Positions 39,290 to 58,038 of a stretch of 64,000 bases of DNA are shown one piece after another. Within the stretch, counting starts at the first letter, position 1; each line of letters starts with the position of its first letter. The translations under genes were made by a program, and so were the position numbers. The stretch lies in assembly GCA_963717445.1 (NCBI GenBank), contig OY970334.1, positions 3,987,704 to 4,051,703 on the forward strand, in the 5' to 3' direction. The notes under the pieces are model-generated. The model was not told the origin of the DNA. It did no database searches and saw only the letters and a list, made by a program, of their open reading frames with translations. This DNA comes from an uncultured Bacteroidota bacterium. GTDB taxonomy: Bacteria > Bacteroidota > Ignavibacteria > UBA10030 > UBA8401.

Positions 39290-39330
39290 GGGGTCGTAGC
39301 TCAGTTTGGTTAGAGCGCCTGCCTGTCACG
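39290..39330 (+). repeat. attL: displaced 5' fragment of tRNA-Asp
   Basis: GGGGTCGTAGCTCAGTTTGGTTAGAGCGCCTGCCTGTCACG, identity ending one base past the anticodon loop. Confidence 0.92.
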
Positions 39331-39392: not shown

Positions 39393-39416
39393 CGTCTAAC
39401 TTTTCTTCTAACACTT
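39393..39416 (+). repeat. Candidate integrase arm-type sites, left end
   Basis: CGTCTAACTTTT plus CTTCTAACACTT in tandem; the same 12-mer occurs twice at 57041-57064. Confidence 0.65.
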
Positions 39417-39479
39417 TCCCTAAAAAGAAGCTTCGCCAATCTTTCACCGAAAAACCATAAACATTAATTCGGAGGAAAT

Positions 39480-42169: not shown

Positions 42170-42226
42170 TTTTCGTTTGCCTACGCTCTTTCGGTGACCT
42201 TGAGCGACTTGTTAGGGCGCCACGTT
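42170..42226 (-). other. Truncated integron attC site (left half only)
   Basis: Minus strand AACGTGGCGCCCTAAC-AAGTCGCTCAAGG directly after the ATPase stop; no matching GTTRRRY arm seen. Confidence 0.65.
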
Positions 42227-42431
42227 AGAAAGCCTTACCTTGAGTGATATTTAAGCCGTCCCGGTAGATCATCGGAATTTTATAGCTAATGCCGAATTCC
42301 TCAAGAAAGCCTATGTCCACAAGGAGTCTAATCTTGGTTCGTAACTCCTCGTCTTGGGATTGACCTGCCCCCCAAAAACCGATCCACTCTGAAGTTAGAA
42401 AATTTTATATTGTGGATCAACGGAGGCAGCA

Positions 42432-42710: not shown

Positions 42711-42754
42711 GCCCGGTCAAACGGCGCCGGGCAGCGGAAGAGATCCAGGAAGAA

Positions 42755-43552: not shown

Positions 43553-44969
43553 AAAAATTAACTAACTTAACATTGGCACATAAACTGGGGGCAGGTCACG
43601 ATAGAGTAGCGGAATCATATTCAGATTTTTTGTCGCGGAAGGCTTGAATGAGATATGCGCTCTCGCCTGCTTCCGCAAGAAGAGTGTCTTCGACACGTTC
43701 TTGGCTTAGCGAGGTTAGTCCTCTCTTAATCGAGTCAGCCTGAAAGATTGACTCACCCACTTTCAGGGCGCGTGGATCGCGTTCTTCTTTGCGAATTTGA
43801 ATGTCTCGAGCTTTCTTAAGTAGATCGATTAAATTGCGAGGGGGCTTGACACCGTTACCATCACGAATTCGGGATAAGATCCAGGTCCACGTCAAAGGTT
43901 TTTTTTCTCCAACGTCGATTTGTTCAGGGAAGAAAAATGCGAAGATTTCTTTCTTAGTTCTTCCGCCAAGGTTTGCCTCATTGATGACTTTCGAGTTATT
44001 CATTATTCGACGCATCAAAAGGTCGAAGAGGTCCTCGTCGTTCCAAGTCACGGCTATTCTTCGGGCATTTACGTGGGTGAGGTTTACGAAGCCGCCTTCT
44101 ATTATTTTTCTAAACAAATCGTTCCTCACAAACAGCTTAAGGCGGATGTTCTCGAATTCGAGCAAATCGAGGTATGTTCTGAATAACGCACGAAGAGCTG
44201 GTTTTTCAGTATTTGGGAATCCTTGGAATGCTTCATCAAGTCTATCAATTACGACCCATGCTTTTAGTTCAATCTGAGCAAGAACTTGATTGAGAAGGAG
44301 AAATGCTTCATAATGGTCAACGACAGGATGCGGTGAGTCACGGGGAGGAGCCTCTTCTCCAAACTCTACTTTTGGTACCAGGATAGGCATTCCTTGTGGA
44401 CTAATCGTCATTTTTAATTCGACGGACTTTGGAGTGATTAATCTCTGAACAACATTAACCAATTTGGAGAAAACGGTGTTGGGTGTATCATCAACTGTGC
44501 GTAAATCAATTTTCTTGAGAAGATCGTCCAACTCGATCATTTCGTCAGAGTAAGATCCTTCATAAACCTGTAGAATCCAATTGCCAACAAGTGAGATGAT
44601 GTAAGCTTTCCAGATTGTCAAGTATTGCCCTTCATCAAGAACTTTCGTTTGTGCAAGGCGTTGGAAAACTGGATTGCCCGAAGGATTGAATCCGGTGATT
44701 ATCTCGGTGTCTTCAAGAGAGGCGATTGATCTGTATGTGCTTTGGAGGATTTTATAGAGTGACGTTTTACCGGTTCCTTTGTCGCCGGCTATAATGTCGC
44801 CTTTGTCTCCAATTAAAGAGCGAAAGGTATCGGTTTCCACGAAGTACTCTTGGAGGCCAGTGTCAAATTCAGCGACTGAACTTCCGAGGTTCAGGTCCTT
44901 CAGTATTTCTAATGGTGTCATTTTGATCTCCTCGTTCTAATGCATTATGTGTTGTGACGAAACGTGGCG

Positions 44970-45035
44970 ACCTAACGAACCCGAGCTAAACTGCAGCGAC
45001 GGCTGGTTCCCTTCGCTTTAGAGACTCATTAGCCC
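44970..45035 (-). other. Integron attC site (degenerate, ~66 bp)
   Basis: Minus strand GGGCTAATGAG...TTTAGCTCGGGTTCGTTAGGTC, ending in a perfect GTTRRRY; shares CGACGGCTGG with the attC at 45750. Confidence 0.65.
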
Positions 45036-45039
45036 GTGC

Positions 45040-45717
45040 TCAGATTGTTGCTTTAATAACGCGTTTTCGTTCTTCCTCAAGCGACGCTATCTGGTCCGCG
45101 CTGAATGGCTCGTACATTTTTACATCTTGATGAGTGATTAGGTTCTCCACAAGCCAGTGTCCAGCGGAAGTTATATTTTTGTGTATCTTCAACTCCCATT
45201 TCATTTCTGTTGTAGTGCCACTCGCTGTTGTCTTTCTTGTTTGAAGGCAGGTCATTATGCTGCCAACAGCAGTGCTAAGATAATCATATAGATCGGGCCC
45301 AAGAAATATGGAGGCGAGAAAAAGATTTTGGCGAGTTTCAAGAACTTTGTGCCAAAATCTATTGATTTCGTCCTTTGGAGTCGCCGTTGTCCACGACCAA
45401 CAATCTTGGTATTCGAAATAGAGCCCATAGACGGAATGATAGTGCGCAAGTTTTTTAGCGGCTGATTGTTTGGCAATTTCAAGCCTGAATCTGCTTCTCA
45501 ACTCTTCATCGCGGAAAGCTACATCGAGCTTGCGAGAAAAGGATTCAACTGATTTCTTCGATATTTCGTCCGCAATGCCTTCGACTCTTCTGAGAAAGTA
45601 ACGCAGGATAAGCCAAACGGCAATTCCTAAGGTAGTGAGAAGTAGCCCAATTGATGGCGCAAACATGCGAGCGACTTCTCGGACAGTTTTTAAGTAAAGG
45701 TCAATTTCTGTCGGCAT
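45040..45717 (-). CDS. Cassette-borne hypothetical membrane protein
   Basis: One N-terminal TM helix, GAGGAG RBS, bounded by attC sites. Confidence 0.7.
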   Translation of the reverse strand: MPTEIDLYLKTVREVARMFAPSIGLLLTTLGIAVWLILRYFLRRVEGIADEISKKSVESFSRKLDVAFRDEELRSRFRLEIAKQSAAKKLAHYHSVYGLYFEYQDCWSWTTATPKDEINRFWHKVLETRQNLFLASIFLGPDLYDYLSTAVGSIMTCLQTRKTTASGTTTEMKWELKIHKNITSAGHWLVENLITHQDVKMYEPFSADQIASLEEERKRVIKATI

Positions 45718-45749
45718 CTTGTTATTGACTCCTCAATAGTTGGTCTGCG

Positions 45750-45899
45750 CCCTAACGACCGGAGCTGAGCTGCGGCGGCGAACAGCCGCCAGGTAGTTCG
45801 TTGCGTGGATGTTCCACTCAGTTGTTCCTAAGACCGTCCAACACCGAGCGGCAAAATCGTCGACGGCTGGGTTCCGTCAGCTTGAGCGGCTGTTTAGGG
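45750..45899 (-). other. Integron attC site (~150 bp)
   Basis: Minus strand GCCCTAAACAGCCGCTCAAGCTGACGG...CCGCCGCAGCTCAGCTCCGGTCGTTAGGGC; outer arms GCGCCCTAA/TTAGGGCGC. Confidence 0.85.
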
Positions 45900-45916
45900 C
45901 GCAGCACGAATATGAG

Positions 45917-46615
45917 CTATTTGAATTCATATGGCTCTTCCGTTAGATGCGCTTCATTTTGTTTGCAATAAATGATACCAATATCACTCAGTAAGAATTG
46001 CATAGTCTTTGGATCCATTGCAACAAGTCCGCGTGATGCGAGCTCACGGATAGCGATGATGAACTCTGGATATTCAGGATTGAATGCTCCAATTGTGAAA
46101 GTCCATCGTTTTGAGAAGTCATCAAAGGCTTTTTGGTATTTCCAGAGAGTGGAAAGAATTTTATTTATAATTTTGGACAGATTTGCAGGCAAAGGTGCTA
46201 CTCCAAGCGGTAGAACTACGTCAGGTGCAGGTGCTGGCGTCGGAAAGGTTGCTTGACCTTGTTTAGATCTAAACTTCCACTGTCCAAATGAAATCTCTTC
46301 AAGGTTTTTAATATATTCCGCCAGATGTTGCAGTGCCGCTGACAGGTGCTTCCGAAACATGAGGACTAAAAACACAACAACGAATGGCCAAGCATATGCG
46401 ATGAGAAGGTCTTTGATCGTGATCCAACTATCAGGCAATTGTATTTGTTGGGTTGTGTTCGTACACTCTCGCGGGACTTGAATCGTTATCGTGTTTACAT
46501 TCTGAGGCTGTAAAGAAGTACCCTTGGTTTTAACAATAGCACTGTCCTTTTTAACAGTTCGAAGCACTTTTTTCACGCTCGTGGAAGGACAATTTGTTTG
46601 TTGGTCTGACGTCAT
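45917..46615 (-). CDS. Cassette-borne hypothetical membrane protein
   Basis: Central TM (YAWPFVVVFLVLMF), proline-rich linker, helical C-terminal domain; GAGGAGG RBS. Confidence 0.7.
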   Translation of the reverse strand: MTSDQQTNCPSTSVKKVLRTVKKDSAIVKTKGTSLQPQNVNTITIQVPRECTNTTQQIQLPDSWITIKDLLIAYAWPFVVVFLVLMFRKHLSAALQHLAEYIKNLEEISFGQWKFRSKQGQATFPTPAPAPDVVLPLGVAPLPANLSKIINKILSTLWKYQKAFDDFSKRWTFTIGAFNPEYPEFIIAIRELASRGLVAMDPKTMQFLLSDIGIIYCKQNEAHLTEEPYEFK

Positions 46616-46673
46616 TTGCTGTTCCTCCTCGTGTGAAAATATTCAGAGTTTTTGAGTTAAGTAGATGTGAAAT

Positions 46674-46705
46674 GTGCTGCGCCCTAACTAAGATTAGATT
46701 GTATG
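46674..46705 (-). other. First cassette junction / attI-like site
   Basis: Minus strand AATCTAATCTTA-GTTAGGGCGCAGCAC; no attC hairpin upstream of the GTT. Confidence 0.45.
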
Positions 46706-47024
46706 TAGCAATAACACGTTGCCTTTTAGTATGAATGATAGACTTCTCCCCACAGGATAATGTAAGAATCGTGGGAGTATGCGGTAGGTTTAAGATTGCC
46801 CCCGCTCTATCTCTGGTACAAAACTACACGATTTTGTAAGCAAACGCAACCTTATCCAACATTTGATTGAATTGCATATCCGCGATTTTTCCTCTATCTT
46901 TTCGTAGATTTCTTGAGGCGGAGACCTTATTTGAATCCATTCCCTTCGAATCAATTGACGAAATCCCATAATTCAAGGCATTCAAAAGTAAACAGACCGG
47001 TTCTTTTCTTATCAACATACAATC

Positions 47025-50000
47025 GTGAAAAATAAGAGTGCGATGAAACAGGTTGTCATCGAAAACCCGATTCTAAATTCCCCATTCAAGGAGCCGGCCC
47101 GCCATTTCCGATTCTCGGACGAAGGTATCACTAACGAGATTGTTGAAGGTCGCAGGATTAGTTCCTACTTCATCCCGATAGCCAAACCCCGAAAAAAAGG
47201 CGGGAATCAACTTACCTTCGATACTGAATGGACTGAAGATCGCATTGAAGAGAACAAGTTCATCAATCAAGTGCGAGAGCGGGTTGCACAATGGAGAAAT
47301 CAAGGGTATCCGTCTTCGAGCATTACCAAGACCACAAAGCAATTGCTTGAATATTGGCAACACGAGGATCGTACTCGGAAACTCTTCTTCTGTCAAATTG
47401 AAGCTGTAGAGACTGCCATCTATCTAACCGAGGTAGCCAAAAAATACGGTGATACCTGGATCGACAATAAGATTCATGCCGCCAATCTCGAAGCGAATCC
47501 GTTGCTCTACAGGGTCGCCTTTAAGATGGCTACCGGTTCCGGCAAAACTGTTGTCATGGCCATGATCATTGCATGGCAAGCGCTCAACAAGATTGCGAAC
47601 TCTCAGGACTCGCTTTTTTCCGATTCGTTCTTGATTGTCACACCGGGCATTACAATTCGTGATCGACTGCGCGTGCTGCTACCGAACGATCCGCAAAATT
47701 ACTACAAAGCGATGGACATAGTTCCGCCGGATTTGCTTGAGGAACTTGGTAAAGCTAAAATCATCATTACAAACTTTCATGCGTTTGGGCGGCGAGAAAA
47801 AGTTGCTGCTGGCAAACTTACAAAGAGCATTCTGAGTAAAGGTGACACATCCGTTTTTACTGAGACGCCCGACCAAATGGTCCGACGTGTCTGTCGAGAG
47901 CTTGGCAGCAAAAAAAACATCGTTGTAATCAACGATGAAGCACATCACTGCTACAGACGAAAAGCAGACGGTGAGGAAGAAATGCTTAAAGGTGATGAAC
48001 GCAAGGAAGCCGAGAAGCGTGAAGAGGAAGCGAGGATTTGGATTTCAGGACTTGAGGCTGTCAAAGCGAAACTTGGCCTCAAGGTTGTCTACGATCTTTC
48101 GGCTACTCCGTTCTTTTTGCGTGGATCAGGTTACCCAGAAGGGACGTTGTTCCCCTGGGTGGTATCAGATTTCTCGTTGATCGATGCAATAGAGTGCGGT
48201 ATCGTCAAGGTTCCTCGTGTCCCGGTTTCTGATGATTCGATGGTGGGGGATCAACCAACGTACCGCGATCTTTGGCTTCGCATCCGAGAACATTTGCCCA
48301 AAAAGGGACGTAAAACTCAGGCGCTTGAGGGAGAGCCCAATCTCCCAGTGGAACTCGAAGGTGCACTCCAGAGCCTATATCTCAACTACGAGAAGTACTA
48401 CAGAAAGTGGGAGCAAAACACTGAGGCTCGTTCACGTGGCCTTACCCCTCCGGTCTTCATCGTAGTCTGCAACAACACCAACGTTTCAAAGATGGTGTAC
48501 GACTATATTGCCGGATGGGAAAAAGAACTCCAAGACGAAGAAAGGATTGTAGTTCCTGGTAAACTCTCCCTCTTCAATAACGAAGAAAATGGAAAATGGA
48601 GTGCAAGACCGAACACGATCCTTGTGGACAGCCAGCAATTGGAATCGGGGGAAGCGATGAGTGATGATTTCAAGAAAATTGCTGCTGCCGAGATAGAAGA
48701 GTTCAAAGCAGAGTATCGCCTTCGTTTTCCAGGCCGGGACGTTGACATCCTAACGGACGAAGATCTACTTCGTGAGGTCATGAACACGGTGGGCAAACTT
48801 GGTAAACTTGGTGAGCAGATCAAATGCGTGGTAAGCGTGTCGATGCTAACCGAAGGGTGGGATGCAAATACTGTCACCCACATCCTTGGTGTGCGTGCCT
48901 TCGGTACACAACTGTTATGTGAACAGGTTGTCGGGAGAGGACTGCGCCGCATGAGCTATGCTGCAAATGAAAAGGGACACTTCATGCCCGAATACGCTGA
49001 GGTATATGGCGTACCGTTCTCCTTCATTCCCTCGGCAGGATCGGCTGTCGATCCAAGGCCCGGCCCAATGCCAACAAGAGTTCGTGCGCTTGAAGACCGA
49101 GTGGCCTGCGAGATTACGTTCCCTCGTCTTACTGGTTACCGATATGAACTGCCCGCTGAAAAACTTACGGCAAAGTTTACAGATGCTTCTCGAATGGCAT
49201 TATCAACTGCTGACATCCCAACCAAGACGGAGAATGCACCAATCGTTGGAGAAACGAGTATTCACACTCTCGACAAACTGAAACTGCGACGTGAGCAGGA
49301 AGTGATATTCCTGCTTTCTAAGTTTGTCTTAGAACGCTACTTGCGGGATGCTGATGACAATACAAAGCCGTGGCTATTCCCCCAACTGCTCCGCATCGCG
49401 AGAGATTGGCGCAACCAATGTGTTACGCTAAAAGACAACACCTTTGTTCAGCTGCTATTGCTCATCGAGTTCGCTAACCAAGCTGCTCAAAAAATCTATC
49501 ATGCAATTGTCAACGCAGATGAAGGCGGGAAGCGACTGATGCCGATTCTGCGACCATTCGATACTATCGGTTCCACTCGTTATGTTGACTTCGATACAAC
49601 TCGTTCCACGTATCGAACTCGTGAGGACCGGTGCCATGTGAACGATGTTGTTCTGCACAGTGGGTGGGAGGGGAAGATGGCGCAGACGCTTGAGGACATG
49701 GAAGATGTTTTCTGCTACGTTAAGAACCAGAATCTCGGGTTCACGATTCCATACACATTGGATTCCGAGGAGCACAACTACGTCCCCGACTTCATCGTGA
49801 AAGTAAATGATGGTCATGGGAAAGAAGACCTATTGAACCTTGTTATTGAGGTAACCGGTGAGAAGAAGAAGGACAAACAGGTGAAGGTATCAACTGCAAA
49901 GACACTTTGGATTCCTGCAGTGAATAATCACAGCGGTTTTGGACGATGGGACTTCTTGGAGATTGAAGATCCCTGGGATGCAGCTCATTCAATCATTGAC

Positions 50001-50258
50001 TTCCTGAGACAGAGAGGTGATTCACAAGCTATCATACAGAAAACCTCCGATGTATCGGGGGGTGAGGCATGTATCCGTAATACAAGGATTGCTGTATGGA
50101 CGATCATCAGCCTAATTAAGCTCGGATCTTCAGACGCTGACATAATCAAAGCATATCCTTCCCTGGATATGGTTGATCTTCAATCTGCTCGGTTTTACTT
50201 TGACCGGCACACTGATGAAATTGAGCAATCAATCAAGCAGCACGAGGAGGCAGATTAG
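47025..50258 (+). CDS. res: Type III restriction endonuclease Res (BPTD_3080-like) with C-terminal DUF433 fusion
   Basis: MATGSGKT, NDEAHH, SATP, MLTEGWD, QVVGRGLRR, PDF...IEVTG; then in frame SGGEACIRNTRIAVWTII...IIKAYPSL (DUF433-like). Confidence 0.88.
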   Translation: MKNKSAMKQVVIENPILNSPFKEPARHFRFSDEGITNEIVEGRRISSYFIPIAKPRKKGGNQLTFDTEWTEDRIEENKFINQVRERVAQWRNQGYPSSSITKTTKQLLEYWQHEDRTRKLFFCQIEAVETAIYLTEVAKKYGDTWIDNKIHAANLEANPLLYRVAFKMATGSGKTVVMAMIIAWQALNKIANSQDSLFSDSFLIVTPGITIRDRLRVLLPNDPQNYYKAMDIVPPDLLEELGKAKIIITNFHAFGRREKVAAGKLTKSILSKGDTSVFTETPDQMVRRVCRELGSKKNIVVINDEAHHCYRRKADGEEEMLKGDERKEAEKREEEARIWISGLEAVKAKLGLKVVYDLSATPFFLRGSGYPEGTLFPWVVSDFSLIDAIECGIVKVPRVPVSDDSMVGDQPTYRDLWLRIREHLPKKGRKTQALEGEPNLPVELEGALQSLYLNYEKYYRKWEQNTEARSRGLTPPVFIVVCNNTNVSKMVYDYIAGWEKELQDEERIVVPGKLSLFNNEENGKWSARPNTILVDSQQLESGEAMSDDFKKIAAAEIEEFKAEYRLRFPGRDVDILTDEDLLREVMNTVGKLGKLGEQIKCVVSVSMLTEGWDANTVTHILGVRAFGTQLLCEQVVGRGLRRMSYAANEKGHFMPEYAEVYGVPFSFIPSAGSAVDPRPGPMPTRVRALEDRVACEITFPRLTGYRYELPAEKLTAKFTDASRMALSTADIPTKTENAPIVGETSIHTLDKLKLRREQEVIFLLSKFVLERYLRDADDNTKPWLFPQLLRIARDWRNQCVTLKDNTFVQLLLLIEFANQAAQKIYHAIVNADEGGKRLMPILRPFDTIGSTRYVDFDTTRSTYRTREDRCHVNDVVLHSGWEGKMAQTLEDMEDVFCYVKNQNLGFTIPYTLDSEEHNYVPDFIVKVNDGHGKEDLLNLVIEVTGEKKKDKQVKVSTAKTLWIPAVNNHSGFGRWDFLEIEDPWDAAHSIIDFLRQRGDSQAIIQKTSDVSGGEACIRNTRIAVWTIISLIKLGSSDADIIKAYPSLDMVDLQSARFYFDRHTDEIEQSIKQHEEAD

Positions 50259-50594
50259 TTGGCCAAACTATACACCAATGAGAATTTCCCTCAGCCTTCA
50301 GTTGATGAACTTCGCAGATTAGGATATGACGTACTCACTTCGCATGAGGCTGGAAACTCAAATCAGCGAATCCCGGACCCCGATGTTCTTAATTATGCAA
50401 CTGAAAAAGAAAGAGTACTAATTACCTTCAACCGGAAACACTTCATAGCTTTGCACAAATCAAATGGTGTGCACTCCGGTATCGTAGTATGCACCGTGGA
50501 CAACGATTTCGTGGCGTTGGCGCAAAGGATAGACGTGGAACTTAAACAGAACGGTAACCCTGCTGGTATGCTGATCAAAGTCAACAGGCATTGA
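50259..50594 (+). CDS. DUF5615 PIN-like protein (putative toxin)
   Basis: LYTNENFP...LRRLGYDV...DPDVLNYA...RVLITFNRKHF...HSGI; TTG start right after the res stop, GAGGAGG RBS. Confidence 0.85.
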   Translation: MAKLYTNENFPQPSVDELRRLGYDVLTSHEAGNSNQRIPDPDVLNYATEKERVLITFNRKHFIALHKSNGVHSGIVVCTVDNDFVALAQRIDVELKQNGNPAGMLIKVNRH

Positions 50595-50618
50595 AGGTCT
50601 CGTCAATAGGACAAACCG

Positions 50619-53420
50619 ATGGCAAAACAAAAAAAGAAAAAAAGGGATGCGAAGATCGTCTACTCAACCCCCGTAGAGCACATGAAGCATCGTGACAAAA
50701 GGGTGAACATTCCCACAGAAGAGTTGCGGGACTTCGTAGCTGAAGATGAGAAGGCGCCCCAAAAGATGTTGTACCCCCGTGATCCGTCGCTCGACCCACA
50801 GCTGGTGTGGAAGGGAAAAGACGAGCAGGACTCAAAGCCTTTAGAAGTTCCCATTGTGCCTATCTACATTCAGGAGAAAATTCACCCTCAGGCGATTGTT
50901 GAGGATTTAAGGGCTCAAGCTCGAAAGGAAAAACCAGAAGATCAGGTTGGTTTATTTGATGACTTCAACGGCATTAACTTCGAGGAAATGATCGATTTCT
51001 ACCAACACGAGCAAAATTGGACAAATCGTGCGATTCTCGGTGACTCACTACTTGTTATGACCTCTCTCTCCGAAAAGGAAGGGCTGAAAGGAAAAGTACA
51101 GAGCATTTACTTTGATCCACCGTACGGTATTAAGTTTGGTTCCAACTGGCAGGTGTCCACCAGGCGGAAAGATGTAAAGGACGGTAAAGTGGAGGACACA
51201 ACGCGGCAACCAGAACAAATCAAAGCATTTCGTGACACATGGGAGAACCACATACACTCTTACCTTGCGTATCTTCGGGATAGACTCGTCGTCTGTCGAG
51301 ATTTGTTGACGGAAAGCGGAAGCCTCTTCGTTCAGATCGGAGAGGAAAACGTGCATCTTGTCAGATCAGTTCTTGACGAAGTGTTTGGGGCCGAGAATTT
51401 CTGCAGTCAAATTGCTTTTAGAACTGCAACAAGCCAGCCAACCACTTTGATTTCATGTGTCTACGATTTTGTTCTTTGGTATGGCAAAGTCAAAAGAGAT
51501 GTAAAATACCGCACGCTAAATCGAGAACGCGAGTACTTTGAGAAAATATCGACCTTTGGCTGGATTGAATTGCAGAACGGACAAGAAAGAACTCTCTCTG
51601 CCAAAGAAAAGAGAGGCGAAATCGCATTACCAGAAGGGGGCAAGCTTTTTAAGGACGCAGATATTACACTCGTGCGTAAACCCGACAAACCATACCAACA
51701 TCCGAGATTCAAAGGGAAGGAATTTCCGCTTTCACTTCAGCTTCGATATGTAGATGGCATTGAGAGGCTTGTTGCAGACGATAGAGTCGTTGTTGTAAAT
51801 GATCGCCTTTGCGGAAAACGATATGAGAGTGACATCCCTTACGTGAAGTATAATTCTGTTTGGGACGATACTATGCAAGGGACTTTCGAGCTGACAAAAG
51901 ACCCAAAAAAATATGTAGTGCAAACAGCACCGAAGGTGATACAGCGTTGTCTTCTTATGACCACTGAACCCGGGGACCTTGTGCTTGATCCGACCTGCGG
52001 TAGTGGCACAACCGCATTTGTCGCCGAACAATGGGGACGGCGGTGGATTACCATTGATACGTCGCGGGTAGCTCTCGCGCTGGCTCGCACGCGTCTCATG
52101 GGAGCGAAATTCCCTTATTACCTTCTCTCAGACTCAGCGGATGGAGCCCAAAAAGAGGCAGAAATTACGGGTAAAATCCCCTCAAGCATAGTTCCAAAAA
52201 GAGAAAATGACATCAAAAAAGGGTTCGTGTATCGACGAATCCCTCACATCTCGCTCAAGTCTATTACAAACGACAGACAGATCGACGCTATTTATGCGAA
52301 GCGACAAGGGAATCTTGACGCAATTCGTGCCGAGTTAAACACGTCTCTCAAGCAGTCATGGGAGGACTGGCAAGTACCAGGAGAAGCAGACCAAACATGG
52401 CCACACAAGACTAAGCAATTCCACGCAGAGTGGTGGAAGCTGTACCGTGAACGGCGGAAAGAGATTGATGACCTTATAGCACGTCATTCTGATACCGAGT
52501 TGCTGTACGATCAGCCGTACGAGGACAATAAGCGCATTAGGGTGACCGGTCCGTTTACTGTCGAATCACTTTCCCCTCACCGGGTACTCTCAACCGCAGA
52601 CGATGATCGCGATGGAAAATTCTCTGAACAAGAAGCAATGCAGCAACAAGACTTCGTCTCGATGATCCTTGATAATCTCCGGAAAGCGGGTGTTCAGAAT
52701 ACAGTAAGAAAAGAGCGACTCAAATTTGATCGACTCGATTCGTTTGCGGGGGTCTGGCTCCATGGTTCGGGTGAGTATTCGGAGAATGGCAAGAGGAAGC
52801 GAGTAGTCATATCTATCGGTCCTGAACATGGAACGGTCGGACCACAACTCATCAAAGAAGCAGCTAAGGAGGCGGTATTGGGGGTTGGTTTTGACTTGCT
52901 CATTGTCTGTGGCTTTGCCTTCGATCCCCACGTTTCCGAAGAGGCGAAACGGTACGGCAAGCTCACTGTCCTCATCGCCCGAATGAATCCCGACCTTGCA
53001 ATGGGTGATGAACTGCTCAAGAAGACTGGAGCAGGCAACCTCTTCATGGTGTTCGGTGAGCCGGACATGGAAGTGAAAAAGCAAAAGGATGGTAAGATCA
53101 TCGTCACTATCAAAGGTCTTGATGTCTACGATCCAACCACAGGTCAGATCCGCTCAAGTACTACAGACGACATTGCATGCTGGTTCATCGATACGAACTA
53201 CAACGGCGAGAGCTTCTTCGTGCGTCATGCTTACTTCACTGGTGCGGATGAGCCATACGAAAAACTCAAGCGAGCCCTCCGAGCCGAGATCGACGAGGCC
53301 GCATGGTCTGCCCTCTACTCCACCAAGAGCCGTCCCTTTGATACACCGATCACAGGAAAGATTGCCGTGAAGGTAATAAATCACTTCGGTGATGAGGTGT
53401 TGAAGGTCTATGATTTGTAA
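50619..53420 (+). CDS. mod: Type III DNA methyltransferase Mod (beta-class motif order)
   Basis: YFDPPY (motif IV), a variable central region, then VLDPTCGSGTT (motif I). Confidence 0.9.
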   Translation: MAKQKKKKRDAKIVYSTPVEHMKHRDKRVNIPTEELRDFVAEDEKAPQKMLYPRDPSLDPQLVWKGKDEQDSKPLEVPIVPIYIQEKIHPQAIVEDLRAQARKEKPEDQVGLFDDFNGINFEEMIDFYQHEQNWTNRAILGDSLLVMTSLSEKEGLKGKVQSIYFDPPYGIKFGSNWQVSTRRKDVKDGKVEDTTRQPEQIKAFRDTWENHIHSYLAYLRDRLVVCRDLLTESGSLFVQIGEENVHLVRSVLDEVFGAENFCSQIAFRTATSQPTTLISCVYDFVLWYGKVKRDVKYRTLNREREYFEKISTFGWIELQNGQERTLSAKEKRGEIALPEGGKLFKDADITLVRKPDKPYQHPRFKGKEFPLSLQLRYVDGIERLVADDRVVVVNDRLCGKRYESDIPYVKYNSVWDDTMQGTFELTKDPKKYVVQTAPKVIQRCLLMTTEPGDLVLDPTCGSGTTAFVAEQWGRRWITIDTSRVALALARTRLMGAKFPYYLLSDSADGAQKEAEITGKIPSSIVPKRENDIKKGFVYRRIPHISLKSITNDRQIDAIYAKRQGNLDAIRAELNTSLKQSWEDWQVPGEADQTWPHKTKQFHAEWWKLYRERRKEIDDLIARHSDTELLYDQPYEDNKRIRVTGPFTVESLSPHRVLSTADDDRDGKFSEQEAMQQQDFVSMILDNLRKAGVQNTVRKERLKFDRLDSFAGVWLHGSGEYSENGKRKRVVISIGPEHGTVGPQLIKEAAKEAVLGVGFDLLIVCGFAFDPHVSEEAKRYGKLTVLIARMNPDLAMGDELLKKTGAGNLFMVFGEPDMEVKKQKDGKIIVTIKGLDVYDPTTGQIRSSTTDDIACWFIDTNYNGESFFVRHAYFTGADEPYEKLKRALRAEIDEAAWSALYSTKSRPFDTPITGKIAVKVINHFGDEVLKVYDL

Positions 53421-53514
53421 AGGAAATTTTTTTTATGCACATGCCAACTTGAAATCTGATGCAAGCTGTGACCCATTAATAATTTTTCCCTAACGTTCAG
53501 ATATTGCCCAAGCG

Positions 53515-54645
53515 ATGAGGCGAGAGTCGATTAAAACGACCATCTTGAAAACGCCGCCAAGAATCTCTCGATTCAATTACTGGAACTTCCTCGACATCAA
53601 TCCACTCCTCCGCCAAAAATTTTACGAAAGGGATTATGATCTAACTGAATTCCGTTGGATGTTTGACAAGAACCTCTCTCAGCGGTATAAGGAGTCTTAT
53701 GAATCGGGAAACACCGAGGCACTCTTTGAATATGCTGAAATCAATCGCTTCTTCCTTCATCAACAGTGGGTTCGAGATAAGCTACAACTATGGCTGTTGA
53801 GGCCAGACAGAAATGTCAAAAAATGGATAAACCGTTTGCTATTCGGTGACAAGTCTGGAAGGCGGAATGAGACCAATCCGGCCGGTCTTCAGAGAATTGT
53901 GGAACGGGACAAGAGAATTTTCATTGATATGATCCGTCTTAGGCAAAAAGGCTATCCGCTAACCGGCTCGTCTTCCTCGAAGAAAGTAGTAGATACTCAA
54001 TCACGTTCGATTTTCTCAAAGCTCGCAAAAAAATATAATGTTGGCGAAGAATCAATTAGAGATGTATATAAGTACTATAATAAATTCTACAAGGAACAAG
54101 CCAAACTTATCGACAAGGAAACCGACCGTGCACTAAGGAGAATGATAAATAAGTTCTATGGAAGATTTCCTTTCAATCGTTATAAATACACTCCCAGATT
54201 TATACTGAGAGATTCCCTTCAAAAACAAACGAAGAAAATAAAACGGACTAAAAGCGAGATTTATCTGGAATGTCGGAGGCTATTGAAAATCTACAAGGAT
54301 CCGAGACTGTCGAAGGCACAAATAGAATACAATTTTGAGACATCAATACTTCAAAATGATTTTCATCGTTGGTGGCGAGGTACGATCAGCCGTTACTACC
54401 CCTGGGGGTTCACTGAAGAAGGATTTATTCGGTTTCTGCGAGACTGCAAAATTATACTCGAAGGTAACAGATACTTTCTCCCATACCAATGGGCTATTCA
54501 GAACCTCGTTGAAGTGATATACCGGATGTCTTCTAACCCCACTGAGGAAGAATTCATCAATGAATTGGAGGATATGAATATTAATGGCTTTTTTGATGTA
54601 ATGGGCTTGTTGCCGAAAGTCAACAAGATGAGATTGGGTCGATGA
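53515..54645 (+). CDS. Hypothetical basic protein with a possible HTH
   Basis: Long AT-rich ORF; IFSKLAKKYNVGEESIRDVY is HTH-like. Confidence 0.6.
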   Translation: MRRESIKTTILKTPPRISRFNYWNFLDINPLLRQKFYERDYDLTEFRWMFDKNLSQRYKESYESGNTEALFEYAEINRFFLHQQWVRDKLQLWLLRPDRNVKKWINRLLFGDKSGRRNETNPAGLQRIVERDKRIFIDMIRLRQKGYPLTGSSSSKKVVDTQSRSIFSKLAKKYNVGEESIRDVYKYYNKFYKEQAKLIDKETDRALRRMINKFYGRFPFNRYKYTPRFILRDSLQKQTKKIKRTKSEIYLECRRLLKIYKDPRLSKAQIEYNFETSILQNDFHRWWRGTISRYYPWGFTEEGFIRFLRDCKIILEGNRYFLPYQWAIQNLVEVIYRMSSNPTEEEFINELEDMNINGFFDVMGLLPKVNKMRLGR

Positions 54646-54694
54646 ACGCCATGAATTAAACCCAATGCGAAGTTCGTAATAAATGTTTAGGATT

Positions 54695-54765
54695 AGAGGT
54701 CAGCCTTCGGTATATCCGGACTTTCGCTCTAACAAAACCGTGTTGACGCTCGAAGGCTGACATCT
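54695..54765. repeat. 15-bp inverted repeat upstream of the small-gene operon
   Basis: AGAGGTCAGCCTTCG (54695-54709) / CGAAGGCTGACATCT (54751-54765), 14/15 match. Confidence 0.7.
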
Positions 54766-54860
54766 TTGAGTCCAAAGTCATCACGGTTTTTGTTTTTTAA
54801 GGCAATGATAAGGCGTCTCAAATAGATCAAATAAATGGTCTTAGAAAGCTGTAACCACTA

Positions 54861-55115
54861 ATGGAAGAACCCCTTAGCAAGAACGCAAATAAAGATGGTC
54901 AAGAGAGCAAAAATCTGCGACCGATTAGGATCCGGTCCGTTAAAGATGCTCGTCGGCTGCTGGCAAGAATCCTAAGGCAATTACAATTGGGTGAAATTTC
55001 GGAGTCGAAAGCAAAGACAATCTCTTATGTTGCAAATAGCTATGCGAAGTTGTTTGAGGTCTCTGAACTGGAAGAACGGGTCGCAGAACTCGAAAAGAGA
55101 ACGACGGCAAAATAG
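54861..55115 (+). CDS. Small helical protein resembling the C-terminal region of DUF5681-type terminase-small-subunit-like proteins
   Basis: IRSVKDARRLLARILRQLQLGEISESKAKTISYVANSYAKLFEVSELEERVAELE pattern, recognised by eye. Confidence 0.55.
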   Translation: MEEPLSKNANKDGQESKNLRPIRIRSVKDARRLLARILRQLQLGEISESKAKTISYVANSYAKLFEVSELEERVAELEKRTTAK

Positions 55116-55123
55116 ATCGATAA

Positions 55124-55465
55124 ATGGTTATGAGGATTGAAGAAAGAATTCGGAGGTTAGAACAAAAGCTTGGATTAGACAAAAGCATCGAGACAGACGT
55201 GGTAACTCTCTTATATGGGTGTGATGAATCACATGGACCTCAATTGGAAGCTGAAGGATGCGTAAGGGAGGGGGATTCGTGGGTGCGGTACGTAGAACCA
55301 AGTGAGAAATGGGCGAAAAGGCAAGAAGCGAAGGGACGTCGCATAAGGACCAGAATTATGTATCGAATTAATACTCCGAGCACCGAAACAGAGGACATCG
55401 TCGAAAAGGCCCAAACCAAGAAATTAAGTTCCTTAGTTAAAAATCGTTCAGCGGTTGCAGGATGA
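55124..55465 (+). CDS. Small hypothetical protein
   Basis: Operonic; N-terminal RIEERIRRLE; ATGA overlap with the next gene. Confidence 0.65.
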   Translation: MVMRIEERIRRLEQKLGLDKSIETDVVTLLYGCDESHGPQLEAEGCVREGDSWVRYVEPSEKWAKRQEAKGRRIRTRIMYRINTPSTETEDIVEKAQTKKLSSLVKNRSAVAG

Positions 55466-55722
55466 GTCTCAAGATACGAATCAAAGATTTGGAAAAAAAG
55501 AAGAACCCAACGGATCAAGGCCCAAAAAGTCACGTCATCATCTTCACTCCAGGTGTTGATAACGTTGATGCGCTGGTTGCCGAATATCGAAAAAAAGATA
55601 GCGAAAGCTTCCTCTTTGTCATCCCGCGATTCATGCGAAGGACAGAATTATCCGATATGAGTGCTCAAAGCGGAAATAATAACGATTCGAAACAGAATGG
55701 ATCCCAGTTAGGACGACCGTGA
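55462..55722 (+). CDS. Small hypothetical protein
   Basis: N-terminal MSLKIRIKDLE; GTGA overlap with integrase 2. Confidence 0.65.
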   Translation: MSLKIRIKDLEKKKNPTDQGPKSHVIIFTPGVDNVDALVAEYRKKDSESFLFVIPRFMRRTELSDMSAQSGNNNDSKQNGSQLGRP

Positions 55723-56975
55723 ATCCGAGTTTTTTGATACCGGAAGACATATTGTTGGAACCTCGGCTCCTCCAAGTGTACTGTTACTTGTTGAGGATGG
55801 TTTGTAATGAGCCGACGAAAATTCGTAAAGACGGGGTTATGGTGGAATTGAGGAGGCTGGAAGTAGCAATTTTAGGAAGAGACATCTCCCACGATCTTGC
55901 TTTACCGATGAGTGACATCGAACCGCTTTTGAACAAATTGGTCGAGGTAGAGCGAATCATAGTTGACAGAAAGGACGACCTTATGAAAATACGATTCATG
56001 AAATTGCTCTTCCCGCGGTCGAGTGATAGTTCAAACGATGAAAGCCTCCGGGGGGATGTCAGCGACTATTGGCTCGACGATTTCAAAACCGACTACCAGG
56101 AATATGTACAGACGAACCTTTCCCAAAAGTCACTTGATAATGCAAAAAGAGTGATGAAATTATTCTGCAATTTCGTTGGGAAAAAGAAGTTGGGCTACAT
56201 CAGGTCATCAGATGCGGAGGACTTCAAACAAATGCGCAAGAATCAAAAATCTCGCGTTTCAGATGCTACTATCAACATGGATATTAGAACCCTTAAGGCC
56301 GCATTCCAATTCGCAGTGGATGTAGGGAAACTTCATGAAAATCCATTCCGAGCTGTAAAGCAAATTCGATGTCCGCGAAAGCAAATGGCAACTTTCAGTC
56401 ATACAGAGTTTAAGCATTTGACTGGTCATATCAAAGAGCCCTGGCTGCTGGACATAGTCAGATTTGACGTGAATACTGGACTCCGACGAGGAGAAATTGT
56501 AAACCTACGTTGGAAGGATGTTGATCTGGCGAACAAACGCATGTTGATTCAATCATCAGCAGAGTACCAAGTGAAGCATGGAAAGTTTCGCCAAGTCCCT
56601 CTCAATAAGGCAGCATTGGGAATAGTCAAAAGACAAAGTAAGGAAACTGAGTGGGTGTTCTCTGACAGCAATGGGTATAAGTTTGTCGATGAATTTGTTT
56701 CGAAGAAATTCAAAGGGTATGTGAGGCTCTGCAAGCTTTCGGAGGAATTACATTTTCATTCTCTTCGGGCAACGTTTGCAACTTGGGCAATTGCGGCGGG
56801 AATGTCGATCTATGCTGTGAAGGCGATCTTGGGCCATGCGTCAGTGAAGACATCGGAAACCTATGCTTCATACGAAATGGACGCACTTCAGAAGGAAGTC
56901 GAAAAGATTGTTTTGGTCGAAGAAGCAGAGGAATTCAAAGCACCGCTGAAGCTTGTAGGCAAAAAACGATCTTAG
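55719..56975 (+). CDS. Tyrosine recombinase 2 with ~110-aa N-terminal winged-helix-like extension
   Basis: GLRRGE, VKHGK, HSLRA, LGH, ETY intact; core region resembles integrase 1. Confidence 0.9.
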   Translation: MNPSFLIPEDILLEPRLLQVYCYLLRMVCNEPTKIRKDGVMVELRRLEVAILGRDISHDLALPMSDIEPLLNKLVEVERIIVDRKDDLMKIRFMKLLFPRSSDSSNDESLRGDVSDYWLDDFKTDYQEYVQTNLSQKSLDNAKRVMKLFCNFVGKKKLGYIRSSDAEDFKQMRKNQKSRVSDATINMDIRTLKAAFQFAVDVGKLHENPFRAVKQIRCPRKQMATFSHTEFKHLTGHIKEPWLLDIVRFDVNTGLRRGEIVNLRWKDVDLANKRMLIQSSAEYQVKHGKFRQVPLNKAALGIVKRQSKETEWVFSDSNGYKFVDEFVSKKFKGYVRLCKLSEELHFHSLRATFATWAIAAGMSIYAVKAILGHASVKTSETYASYEMDALQKEVEKIVLVEEAEEFKAPLKLVGKKRS

Positions 56976-56991
56976 GAGTACAAAAATGCTA

Positions 56992-57020
56992 TTGCAGAAC
57001 GCAAACAATTTTCTTATATT
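56992..57020 (+). promoter_or_regulatory. Element-encoded putative promoter for tRNA-Asp
   Basis: TTGCAG-N17-TATATT inside the element, about 115 nt upstream of the tRNA. Confidence 0.5.
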
Positions 57021-57040
57021 GATTTCGAAGACTTGGGAAG

Positions 57041-57064
57041 CTTCTAACACTTCTTCTAACACTT
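57041..57064 (+). repeat. Candidate integrase arm-type sites, right end
   Basis: CTTCTAACACTT twice in perfect tandem. Confidence 0.7.
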
Positions 57065-57135
57065 TTTCACGTTGGAGGAGAGAAGAAAAACGCTGAATGG
57101 TGTCGGAAATGCTGAAAAGTCTAAGAAATATGCAC

Positions 57136-57210
57136 GGGGTCGTAGCTCAGTTTGGTTAGAGCGCCTGCCTGTCACGCAGGAAGTCGCGAGTTCGAGTCTC
57201 GTCGGCCCCG
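57136..57210 (+). tRNA. trnD: tRNA-Asp (GTC)
   Basis: Acceptor stem GGGGTCG/CGGCCCC, anticodon stem CCTGC/GCAGG with GTC, T-arm GCGAG-TTCGAGT-CTCGT; CCA not encoded. Confidence 0.97.
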
Positions 57211-57536
57211 CAGAAAATGGAAATACAGTGCGGCTAATGTTGGTCGCCCGCCATCTTTCAGGCGGGTCGGCCCCGCAGAAAATGGAAATACAGTGCGGCT
57301 AATGTTGGTCGCCCGCCATCTTTCAGGCGGGTCGGCCCCGCAGAAAATGGAAATACAGTGCGGCTAATGTTGGTCGCCCGCCATCTTTCAGGCGGGTCGG
57401 CCCCGCACAAAATGGAAATGGAGTGCGGCTATTCTCGCTCGCCCGCCATCTTTCAGGCGGGTCGGCCCCGCACAAAATGGGAATGCCTCGCGGCTATTCT
57501 CGCTTGCCCTCCATCTTTCAAAGGGGTCGGACCCGC
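57201..57536 (+). repeat. 65-bp tandem repeat, five copies plus a partial, each starting with the last 10 nt of tRNA-Asp
   Basis: Units start at 57201, 57266, 57331 (identical), 57396, 57461 (progressively diverged), 57526 (partial). Confidence 0.95.
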
Positions 57537-58038
57537 TAGGGCTTATCAGCAAGATCGAAAAATTTTGCCCCGCCCGTAAGAAAATCATTGGAATGGTTGC
57601 CCGCTGCGTCCGACATCCGGAGACTCTTATGTTCCTCTCGAAATCAATATCAGAATGCGAGATTCAATTGGTCCATTTCAAACCGAGCTGACCGGCATAA
57701 GCGGCAAAACTTCACTCACAAATGATTGCATTCTCGCGATGTCTCAATTCGAACAAAGAATTTTCCAATCCTCTTAGCGGAAACTCTTGCAAAAATCTCG
57801 CCATTACATTTGAAGTTTTATCCTGGAATGTGCATAACCAAAATGACAAACGCCCGAAATGAGCATCAGAAGGCGCTGCCGCTTAAACCATATCTTAACA
57901 TCTTTTGTCTAATGTCTTTCTACAATATCTGACAAACGCATGGAATTATCACTTGAAAACTCGCAAAAGGGAACAAACAATTCTCCATTATCAGATTATT
58001 ATAATAGACATCGAATCGCCGCTAATCATCTTTCTGTA

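Follow-up and report, generated by a model that had tools for sequence, protein, structure and literature searches.

The window is the whole 64,000-nt stretch of DNA that was analyzed, and it contains a genomic island of 17.8 kb (39290-57176). The integrase end of the island is the stretch 53515-56975, where four unannotated genes precede a tyrosine integrase gene. The features of the island are listed below.

39290..39330, + strand: attL, left boundary of the island, a displaced copy of tRNA-Asp nt 1-41 (exact repeat)
39403..39417, + strand: TTCTTCTAACACTTT motif copy in the island near attL (15-nt exact match to 57051-57065)
47025..53420, + strand: a type III Res-DUF433 fusion, a DUF5615 protein, and a type III Mod (Pfam ResIII, DUF433, DUF5615, N6_N4_Mtase)
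53515..54645, + strand: 376-aa basic all-helical protein, start ATG at 53515 or possibly TTG at 53545
54695..54790, no strand: two interleaved inverted repeats in the spacer (54646-54860) between the 376-aa and 84-aa genes (repeat search)
54861..55115, + strand: 84-aa protein, disordered basic N-terminus and helical hairpin
55124..55465, + strand: 113-aa product of the first "LE-motif" gene, with a RIEERIRRLEQKL helix at the N-terminus (homologues after the 84-aa gene)
55462..55722, + strand: 86-aa product of the second "LE-motif" gene, with an IRIKDLEKK helix at the N-terminus (4-nt overlap with the gene on either side)
55719..56975, + strand: tyrosine integrase, 418 aa, N-terminal extension of about 115 residues (PF00589 and phrog_1)
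57041..57064, + strand: CTTCTAACACTT in tandem, two copies, in the interval between integrase and tRNA (repeat search, family D10; kin copy at 39403-39417)
57136..57176, + strand: attR, first 41 nt of tRNA-Asp(GTC) (direct repeat)
57136..57211, + strand: intact tRNA-Asp(GTC) (ARAGORN; Rfam tRNA, 68.8 bits)

The integrase end had been described from the letters alone as a compact core of co-oriented, overlapping genes. The five plus-strand ORFs (376, 84, 113, 86, and 418 aa) are indeed present, with an ATGA junction between the 113-aa and 86-aa genes and a GTGA junction between the 86-aa and integrase genes. The three small basic genes are translationally coupled to the integrase gene, and the pI of all four core proteins is 9.0-9.9. 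All four unannotated core ORFs (376, 84, 113, and 86 aa) are real genes, because homologues or relatives were found for each of them.

The integrase matches PF00589 (Phage_integrase) with 105.8 bits (cut-off 27.1, E 2.7e-30) and phrog_1 with 5.7e-57. The catalytic set of tyrosine recombinases is R...H-x-x-R...H...Y, and the residues R256, H347-x-x-R350, H373, and Y382 were located. The 41-nt direct repeat at 39290-39330 and 57136-57176 is exact; two copies are present in the window (up to 3 mismatches allowed) against 0 expected, and the whole genome contains only these 2. The island thus has a direct repeat of part of a tRNA gene at both ends and an integrase inside, as a tRNA-integrated island does. 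It sits upstream of tRNA-Asp, whose 5' half it restores, and the distance from the integrase stop to the tRNA is 160 nt. Short CTTCTAACACTT repeats are found on both arms of the would-be attP. The CTTCTAACACTT tandem and the TTCTTCTAACACTTT copy at 39403..39417 are candidate arm-type sites, to which the integrase may bind. The island also contains a second integrase and an IS3 element and is therefore composite. In one of 12 same-genus genomes (L088), 800 nt separate the left-flank gene from an intact tRNA-Asp on one 2-kb contig, the right flank being unmatched; the left flank was matched without a nearby tRNA in 4 others of the 12.

The type III restriction-modification genes directly upstream of the core are cargo (PADLOC MTase_III 2.9e-284, REase_III 1.5e-08), and further cargo of the defence type comprises SoFic and PDC-M28C. 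In the Pfam scans of 14 island ORFs, families of capsid, tail, conjugation, relaxase, and primase proteins were all absent, as the sequence-only reading had stated. Its description of a compact integrative element with defence cargo is likewise borne out by the 41-bp att repeat, the intact tyrosine integrase, and the type III, SoFic, and PDC-M28C genes. The related locus L006 keeps the core with different cargo: an Eco57I-type methylase, AbiC, and a deaminase replace the type III genes. Tyrosine integrase beside a tRNA, a partial-tRNA direct repeat bounding the element, and changeable defence cargo next to a conserved core are shared with tRNA-integrating defence islands. Most described tRNA-integrating elements duplicate the 3' part of the tRNA, whereas here the 5' half is repeated, the island lies upstream, and the integrase reads towards the tRNA. 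The accessory genes here also differ: they are an unnamed trio, with no recognisable Xis/AlpA.

The first gene of the core had been labelled HTH-like. This label is not upheld, as the only match of the 376-aa protein (pI 9.9) was PRS2_N with E 0.038, below the cut-off. No Pfam, NCBIfam, PHROG, or PADLOC family and no replication domain was detectable in it, and its AF2 model (pLDDT 44) is unusable. Its family has only 4 clusters among 5.8 billion proteins, the protein's own included, which leaves 3 other relatives; an N-terminal RISRFNYW block is conserved among them. The gene occupies the slot where relatives have replication genes. The inverted repeat described in the spacer that follows was recovered as two pairs, 54695-54709/54751-54765 (15 nt, 93%) and 54734-54747/54777-54790 (14 nt, 93%), with a predicted RNA fold of -36.6 kcal/mol (z -1.94). 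The segment is single-copy in the genome and matches no Rfam family. The repeats are no conserved part of the element, because the segment is missing from five aligned related loci (L003-L007). The 70-aa and 95-aa ORFs kept upstream of the 84-aa gene in relatives are missing from the window.

The 84-aa protein contains the residue pattern that had been pointed out in it. The proposal drawn from that pattern, resemblance to a DUF5681-type small terminase, fails in profile and hhalign tests. DUF5681 (PF18932) gave no match to the protein at E<=1 and matched 0/144 family members at E<=0.01, and it had no match in the six-frame translation of the genome. The hhalign comparison of the 84-aa family with a small alignment of 3 same-phylum DUF5681 proteins returned a probability of 0.1% over 8 columns. 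The only trace of DUF5681 is a language-model neighbour at 0.78, a level graded as often chance. Both proteins are small, basic, and partly helical, but the G-N-P-x-G-R/K-P-K/R-G stretch of the three aligned DUF5681 proteins is absent from the 84-aa protein. The TerS fold consists of an N-terminal DNA-binding domain and an oligomerisation core. The 84-aa model is a bare two-helix hairpin, a shape that by itself could still be like a TerS core, and the fold-search rows listed include no terminase. No terminase family was found beside 84-aa homologues, either in the island ORFs or in 126 scanned neighbour proteins from 20 loci, which include part of the Chlorobiaceae singletons. By the profile comparisons, the 84-aa protein is not recognisable as a small terminase of the DUF5681 type. 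Of the two points on which the proposal had been staked, similarity to TerS was thus not found, and the location of homologues in mobile elements was. In a genome of the same family (L062), a DUF5681 gene lies directly before a 422-aa ORF that resembles a large terminase by eye, which fits the earlier view of DUF5681 as small-terminase-like.

The AF2 model of the 84-aa protein (pLDDT 86.3) is a two-helix hairpin with helices at 27-42 and 48-83, and the long second helix ends leucine-zipper-like (ELEERVAELEK). Foldseek returned no significant match in PDB or BFVD, and the fold searches yielded generic helical hairpins only; the best VIA Z was 7.9, to XseB. The C-terminal helix draws only coiled-coil chains (GCN4, HY5), none significant. 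The family comprises 13 close clusters and 356 distant representatives (E<=0.001); the 150 listed have a median length of 89 aa. The protein could be placed in no Pfam or PHROG family, and any one PHROG matched only 2/144 members. Six metagenome loci keep the gene at 75-80% identity; a 62-71% identical integrase was reached in 4 of them and tRNA-Asp in 1. The spread of the family is patchy, because matches were obtained from 29/401 genomes of the phylum (14/179 genera) and 26/401 of the class (24/175 genera). Homologues lie in mobile elements, with an integrase in 17/20 fetched contexts (BLAST clustering).

The two tiny genes are also shared with relatives. Homologues of the 113-aa protein (35-38% identity) directly follow the 84-aa gene in L004 and L007. 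Those of the 86-aa protein were found in L005/L006, L008, L042, and L092 (phmmer 3.4e-05), each just upstream of an integrase, and the integrases after the module in L005-L008 are 62-71% identical to that of the window. No LE protein (0/33) matched a PHROG at E<0.001. Across 39 loci, small ORFs opening with an [RK]-h-x-x-h-E helix come after the 84-aa homologue and often overlap it; the 113-aa and 86-aa genes of the window open in this way too. Such ORFs were counted when they started -40 to +250 nt from the stop of the homologue and had [RK][LIVM]xx[LIVM]E in the first 30 residues. This pattern was seen at 17/20 loci against 13/1290 other ORFs; the motif was defined after sight of these first 20 loci, 11 of which are from Chlorobiaceae, and at 19 later-fetched, held-out loci the rate is lower (12/19 against 4/188 other ORFs). 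A stricter first regular expression gave 15/20 and 8/19, and as many loci are kin, all these counts overstate independence.

The 84-aa gene and the two tiny genes form an undescribed three-gene module that is common to many small integrating elements of the phylum. The trio is found across the phylum in small integrase-bearing elements, where it forms the 3' end of replication operons that differ widely. A recognisable replication gene was found within 2 genes upstream in 13/20 loci, with Pfam run on cluster representatives and 8 non-Chlorobiaceae loci. The preceding operons include DUF6371/CHC2 primase, AAA_25 or DnaB helicase, Prim-Pol/VapE, and Rep_O. A 6.2-kb element bounded by a 51-bp tRNA-Ser repeat (L059) still has the gene pair. 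In most lineages the trio is kilobases away from the integrase, and an HTH_17/AlpA gene is near the integrase.

In temperate phages and integrative elements, xis-int operons place small basic protein genes directly before the integrase. The window resembles them in that small basic proteins are encoded directly upstream of, and overlapping, the integrase gene, and in three further lineages a gene of the 86-aa type comes before an integrase. The trio differs in having no winged-helix or HTH_17 excisionase signature, and in most other lineages it is far from the integrase and accompanied by a separate HTH_17 gene. This arrangement argues against a general role as directionality factor. The pairing with unrelated replication proteins argues against an accessory specific to one replication protein, and a transfer or hijack function fits it equally well.

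The favoured reading is that the trio is a nucleic-acid-binding coiled-coil complex for the excision-replication cycle of the element. The hairpin protein and the LE-motif proteins would assemble through their helices into a small coiled-coil complex, which would bind nucleic acid through its basic tail, with a zinc-ribbon-like extension in one sub-family, and, once the element is induced, would act in the cycle of the element itself. In the lineage of the window, which has no AlpA/HTH_17 gene, the trio would most likely be an architectural or directionality factor made with the integrase, and the 376-aa protein may fill the slot of a replication initiator. The stretch 53515-56975 is thus read as the conserved backbone end of the 17.8-kb integrative island, with the trio as a proposed coiled-coil complex serving the element's own cycle (probability about 0.55). 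Weighing against this reading are the composite make-up of the island, of which no excised form was seen, and the lack of a detectable replication domain in the 376-aa protein.

A tentative alternative is a phage-satellite nature of the island and its relatives, which a helper phage would package and in which the hairpin and LE-motif proteins would constitute a hijack module. For example, a mimic of the TerS oligomerisation hairpin that has no DNA-binding domain could join or block the terminase of the helper. The SatelliteFinder paper describes PICI type C and gives PICI elements five core components: integrase, regulator (alpA, merR, or stl), primase-replicase, capsid-morphogenesis gene, and terS (PMC10085698). 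PICMI elements have mandatory int, alpA (PF05930/PF12728), and primase (DUF3987/DUF5906) and are integrated next to fis (PMC10803314). Like these satellites, the elements with the trio are small, integrase-bearing, free of structural genes, and loaded with defence cargo, and relatives have integrase, HTH_17/AlpA, and primase/helicase genes in the same order, a set that corresponds to PICI type C and PICMI as so described. The trio directly follows the replication genes, the position of packaging genes in PICIs, and it is portable across unrelated replication modules. The bounded elements measure only 6.2 and 9.9 kb, the distribution is patchy, and in L042 an HNH endonuclease gene directly precedes the 84-aa homologue. 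A phBC6A51-type homeodomain protein was ranked 4 in BFVD for the 84-aa model (E 0.18, not significant), and a putative satellite classified by SatelliteFinder is reported from a green sulfur bacterium in a 2026 preprint.

The island of the window differs from both satellite types. Among the PICI components it has the integrase; no alpA/merR/stl regulator was matched in the core genes, none of the scanned island ORFs gave a primase or replicase match (both Pfam and NCBIfam), and no capsid-morphogenesis gene or terS was matched in the island (Pfam and PHROG). Of the PICMI set it has the integrase only, and its site is tRNA-Asp, not the vicinity of fis. In one relative, L056, HTH_17 and Prim-Pol/VapE are present and DUF5906 scores 26.3 bits, short of the cut-off of 27.6. 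Against a satellite origin also stand the DUF5681, PHROG, and fold results above, a tblastn search with three diverse family members that found no relatives in 50,697 phage records, and three IMG/VR scans that gave 0, 1 marginal, and 0 loci. It is doubtful that the trio is the helper-exploitation module of new, widespread minimal satellites or hitchers in green sulfur bacteria and relatives, with the island as a reduced, defence-laden member. Under that reading, a domain-poor coiled-coil complex would redirect the packaging or assembly machinery of a helper with no homologue of terS, capsid, or AlpA.

It is unlikely that the core is an inert relic in a fixed island, with small ORFs decaying or recruited for host functions unrelated to mobility. 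The composite structure with a second integrase and IS3, the absence of the 70-aa and 95-aa ORFs, and the lack of an excision joint in the contigs examined would fit a relic, but such contigs cannot reveal rare excised forms. Moreover, the two att copies show no difference over 41 nt, the catalytic residues of the integrase are intact, and all four ORFs are uninterrupted and have conserved protein sequences in relatives.

Transport of the island by a conjugative helper, as an integrative mobilizable element with the inverted repeats as oriT and the 376-aa protein as an unrecognised relaxase or accessory protein, would suit repeats adjoining a gene of unassigned family, an island without its own transfer genes, and a weak MbeB_N match (E 0.034) in the 428-aa protein in the same slot of L006, but it is very improbable given no relaxase, coupling-protein, or T4SS family in the island or the 126 scanned neighbour proteins, repeats missing from the five aligned loci, and a 376-aa family of only 4 clusters beside a trio widespread without it.

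To our knowledge, most defence-carrying genomic islands have no known way of moving, and we know of no satellite or mobilizable island dissected in this phylum. How "hitcher" elements are transferred is described as enigmatic in a 2024 essay (PMC11389934). The present analysis singles out a concrete, portable three-gene module; it is combined with five or more unrelated replication systems and persists in a minimal element of 6 kb. Should the module control excision or replication, tyrosine-integrase elements would gain a new kind of accessory factor; should it control transfer, it would define a new hijacking strategy. Either way, the hairpin protein together with the LE-motif ORF is a marker for such islands and their defence cargo, useful where standard satellite and ICE finders detect only an integrase.

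Five co-oriented genes constitute the core of the element, and ORF calling recovered all of them on the forward strand, in agreement with the sequence-only reading. They are listed here with the features that surround them.

Features of the island and its core (window positions; the four ORFs without a family name by ORF reading)
39290-39330, exact repeat of the first 41 nt of the tRNA-Asp
39403-39417, further occurrence of the CTTCTAACACTT motif
39480-40484, second tyrosine integrase, 334 aa
47025-50594, type III Res with a C-terminal DUF433 fusion
53515-54645, + strand, 376-aa ORF
54695-54709/54751-54765, inverted repeat 1, in the spacer before the 84-aa gene
54734-54747/54777-54790, inverted repeat 2, in the same spacer
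54861-55115, + strand, 84-aa ORF
55124-55465, + strand, 113-aa ORF
55462-55722, + strand, 86-aa ORF
55719-56975, + strand, 418-aa tyrosine integrase (PF00589, 2.7e-30; phrog_1, 5.7e-57)
57041-57064, two tandem copies of the CTTCTAACACTT motif
57136-57211, tRNA-Asp(GTC), 160 nt past the integrase
57201-57536, 65-bp unit repeated 5.2 times, 3' of the tRNA-Asp

The gene overlaps described earlier were borne out, with ATGA at the junction of the 113-aa and 86-aa genes and GTGA at that of the 86-aa and integrase genes. Only 8 nt separate the stop codon of the 84-aa gene from the start of the 113-aa gene, and the three small genes are translationally coupled to the integrase. The catalytic residues of the integrase (R256, H347-x-x-R350, H373, and Y382) are all in place. 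The other four core proteins are basic (pI 9.0-9.9) and have no match at a meaningful E-value in Pfam, NCBIfam, PHROG, or PADLOC. A Csm2 match among them (PADLOC, E 0.005) was regarded as chance, and no other defence family was seen. PDB sequence searches with A1 and with A3, the 144-member alignment of the 84-aa family, gave no significant match, and a promoter and terminator scan gave no signal exceeding shuffles.

The 376-aa protein was found in just 3 other clusters. Its N-terminal RISRFNYW block is conserved, and the gene start is therefore placed near 53515-53545 rather than at a shorter call. Its AF2 model (pLDDT 44) was built on an alignment of 4 sequences, and ESM Atlas returned unnamed clusters with recognition below threshold. 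The inverted repeat claimed upstream of the 84-aa gene was revealed to be two interleaved repeats in a 215-nt spacer. This segment is single copy in the genome, folds as RNA modestly better than shuffles (z -1.94), and belongs to no Rfam family, the tRNA being the sole Rfam match. It is absent from five aligned related loci, in which conserved 70-aa and 95-aa ORFs occupy its place; judged from these alignments, conservation of the module does not extend to the inverted repeat.

The boundaries of the island are set at about 39290-57176 (17.8 kb) by the pair of 41-nt repeats at the tRNA-Asp and at 39290-39330. Allowing up to 3 mismatches, the window holds this att core just twice (0 expected), and the 4.2-Mb genome has no further copy. 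The island lies upstream of the tRNA-Asp, whose 5' half it restores. The CTTCTAACACTT motifs are situated on what would be both attP arms, and they are thus read as candidate arm-type integrase sites. A 2-kb contig from a genome of the same genus (L088) carries the left-flank aldo/keto-reductase gene together with an intact tRNA-Asp, and may show roughly how the site looks when empty. Each of the 65-bp units past the tRNA-Asp opens with the last 12 nt of the tRNA and contains a CCCGCC...GGCGGG hairpin. A repeated unit with a similar hairpin follows the tRNA-Asp of the metagenome locus L006 too (12788-12905). One explanation of these repeats would be recurrent recombination at the tRNA 3' end that left scars; another would be that terminators were duplicated.

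The cargo includes a type III Mod (PADLOC, 2.9e-284), the Res-DUF433 protein followed by a DUF5615 gene, a SoFic-type Fic protein (1.1e-108), an Sll1717/PDC-M28C ATPase, and an IS3 transposase. The DUF5615 gene begins on the base right after the stop codon of Res-DUF433, and the two domains look like a toxin-antitoxin-like pair with one half fused to Res. The second integrase starts 150 nt past attL and is 35% identical to the 418-aa integrase; because it is present while a third att copy is absent, the island looks composite. The reported absence of structural, transfer, and primase genes was confirmed by a scan of 14 island ORFs, among which no capsid, tail, terminase, relaxase, T4SS, or primase family was detected.

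The 84-aa protein has relatives in 13 other clusters at about 76% identity. Six metagenome loci encoding it were analyzed by tblastn and ORF reading.

Gene order at the six metagenome loci
L003: 376-aa homologue (73%), 84-aa gene
L004: 84-aa gene, 113-aa-type gene
L007: 84-aa gene, 113-aa-type gene, integrase
L005 and L006: 84-aa gene, 62-aa LE-motif ORF, 86-aa-type gene, integrase (70%)
L008: 84-aa gene, 86-aa-type gene, integrase

The L006 stretch extends as far as a tRNA-Asp, and its cargo is unlike that of the window: an Eco57I-type methylase, AbiC, a deaminase-HATPase protein, and a DprA-like protein. Family-less ORFs of 70-85 aa and 95 aa (L003, 1464-1721; L006, 9315-9818) are conserved 5' of the 84-aa gene in the relatives and have been lost from the window. 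L006 also contains a 134-aa ORF between the integrase and the tRNA-Asp (12130-12534), with no counterpart in the window. As a DUF5681 relative it was rejected, with no Pfam match and a weak hhalign result (probability 15%, E 0.0018, 37 columns).

About 18 kb around 20 homologues of the 84-aa gene was taken and ORFs were called. Behind the homologue come one or two short ORFs, in many cases with an overlap of 1-26 nt; their first residues form a helix of the K-R-V-E-K-L-E type (the LE motif). N-termini of the same type are found in the 113-aa (RIEERIRRLEQKL) and 86-aa (IRIKDLEKK) proteins of the window, and the C-terminus of the 84-aa protein itself takes the LE form (ELEERVAELEK). The first regular expression matched at 15 of the 20 loci, against 8/363 other called genes and 35/1345 six-frame ORFs, the motif being post hoc for this set, since it was written after these loci were viewed, and 11 of the 20 being related through Chlorobiaceae. 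At loci fetched later, it matched at 8/19 (the twentieth new locus yielded no ORF match) against 3/188. With a less elaborate pattern, [RK][LIVM]xx[LIVM]E among the first 30 residues, the scores were 17/20 against 13/1290, and 12/19 against 4/188 at the later loci. None of 33 LE proteins matched PHROG at E<0.001.

The trio of the hairpin gene and LE genes is conserved at the end of replication operons. A replication gene is recognisable no more than two genes upstream of the homologue at 13 of the 20 loci, and its type varies: DUF6371 with a CHC2 zinc finger, AAA_25 or DnaB helicase, Prim-Pol/VapE, or Phage_rep_O (Pfam families were assigned to cluster representatives and to 107 proteins from the eight non-Chlorobiaceae loci, with cluster membership by BLAST). 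An integrase is encoded in 17 of the 20 fetched stretches, with HTH_17/AlpA-type genes near it in several. Drawn as circles, all elements have one gene order: integrase, (regulator), replication, hairpin, LE, (cargo), and att; the sole difference of the window is that att comes after the integrase, not before it. Two elements have defined ends: L059 (8470-14678, 6.2 kb) is bounded by copies of the 51-bp 5' half of a tRNA-Ser, and L061 (1532-11528, 9.9 kb) by a duplicated 91-bp stretch at a tRNA-Phe 3' end. The 6.2-kb element retains the hairpin gene and one LE gene, which places the module in the minimal core and not in the cargo. L059 has the same unusual tRNA 5'-half arrangement as the window island. 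Among 126 neighbour proteins scanned, a set with some of the Chlorobiaceae singletons, phage structural or transfer families were limited to a single Phage_tail_S, encoded on the opposite strand of the 7-kb contig L055.

Homologues of the 84-aa protein occur in 3/55 genomes of the family, 26/401 genomes of the class (24/175 genera), and 29/401 genomes of the phylum (14/179 genera); the distribution is patchy and accessory. A single family, Chlorobiaceae, accounts for 18 of the phylum matches, and 17 of these 18 named loci are from green sulfur bacteria. The remaining one (L077), a Chlorobiaceae-type homologue 76% identical to the query, is on a contig labelled Chitinivibrionales, and represents either cross-phylum transfer or a binning error. 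In one sub-family (L102, L105, L106, L108, and the listed representative P0114), an N-terminal C...C...C-x-H zinc-ribbon-like extension replaces the basic tail; this pattern points to a probable nucleic-acid binding function.

The 84-aa protein had been likened to DUF5681-type small terminases, and this likeness did not hold. It has no Pfam match at E<=1. A profile search of 1.84 billion representatives revealed 356 relatives at E<=0.001, nearly all of 62-135 aa. For A3, ten of the 150 relatives listed were left out for length or repeats (P0057, P0059, P0061, P0068, P0094, P0095, P0104, P0114, P0122, and P0130), and the remaining 140 were aligned with the window protein and 3 close relatives. 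None of the 144 members matches DUF5681, no Pfam family is common to more than one of them, and two match one PHROG of unknown function. Alignment of A3 with three DUF5681 proteins of the phylum by hhalign gave a probability of 0.1%. A six-frame genome search for DUF5681 gave no match, and a search of genome contigs with A2 found no relative. Among 8000 candidates, none was a fused long form of the family at E<=0.001, a result of little weight. DUF5681 itself is present in 4/401 genomes of the phylum; in L062 it lies directly 5' of a 422-aa ORF that, judged by eye, looks like a large terminase, which fits the sequence-only view of DUF5681.

In the AF2 model of the 84-aa protein (pLDDT 86.3), a disordered, basic N-terminal tail precedes two helices (27-42 and 48-83) that form a hairpin. 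At E<=0.001, neither the 341 PDB rows from Foldseek nor BFVD contained a match. In a wide VIA-align search of 48,161 chains, 579 reached Z>=5, all generic hairpins, and the best score (XseB, Z 7.9) falls inside the stated noise range of the tool for helical models. ESM Atlas placed 30 unnamed clusters at the top (0.94-0.95). The sole traces pointing to terminases are its DUF5681 cluster at 0.78, a level described as "often chance", and a phBC6A51-type homeodomain protein in BFVD at a non-significant E of 0.18. For a bare hairpin, a likeness to the oligomerisation core of TerS may be compatible with the model. The Pfam, hhalign, and six-frame searches are all against the DUF5681 reading, and the terminase label should be dropped.

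In the monomer model, the C-terminal half of the second helix protrudes unpaired. This half is proposed to pair with the LE proteins at their N-terminal helices; the resulting small coiled-coil complex might touch nucleic acid via the basic tail. The integrase gene directly adjoins the 86-aa-type gene in the lineage of the window, as well as in the related loci L042 and L092, where an AlpA-type gene is absent throughout, and thus an architectural or directionality-factor role is favoured. The whole reading, in which the trio would be such a factor in an excision-replication cycle, has a probability of roughly 0.55. Against this role, most lineages have the trio at a distance from the integrase and possess an HTH_17 gene of their own; moreover, a transfer or hijack function would explain no less well that the trio is combined with replication systems unrelated to each other.

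The proposal that the element is a phage satellite is doubtful. The int, AlpA, and primase layout of the relatives corresponds to PICI type C as named in the SatelliteFinder paper (PMC10085698), which cautions that elements of this type may be mobile elements of another kind, and it includes int/alpA/prim, the mandatory set of PICMI (PMC10803314). A 2026 preprint (bioRxiv 10.64898/2026.09.26.754401) mentions a green sulfur bacterium with a putative satellite, so classified by SatelliteFinder, and this could bear on the proposal. However, the window is without AlpA, primase, and terS. No family member was found by tblastn with three diverse members in the 50,697 phage records of INPHARED, and IMG/VR scans with A2, A6, and A7, a method that finds pattern-level relatives only, gave 0, 1 marginal (35% over 34 residues), and 0 loci. 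For this island itself, a satellite nature is a minor possibility and lacks support.

There is a slight chance that the island is an inert relic, a reading weakened by att copies that are identical and by ORFs that are intact and conserved. Assembled contigs over 39000-57600 (three DNA runs of one study, one possibly the source), in which rare forms are invisible, contain no 39289-57136 joint and no circle junction. A mobilizable element with the inverted repeat as oriT is very improbable, given that the repeat is missing from the relatives aligned and that no relaxase was found among the 14 island ORFs scanned.

The element is of an ordinary kind, a tRNA-integrated defence island. Two of its features are less ordinary: att lies at the 5' half of the tRNA, and the element carries a module of three genes that has no name and is widespread in the phylum. 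This module, for which the architectural or directionality-factor role is preferred, is the part of the element worth follow-up.
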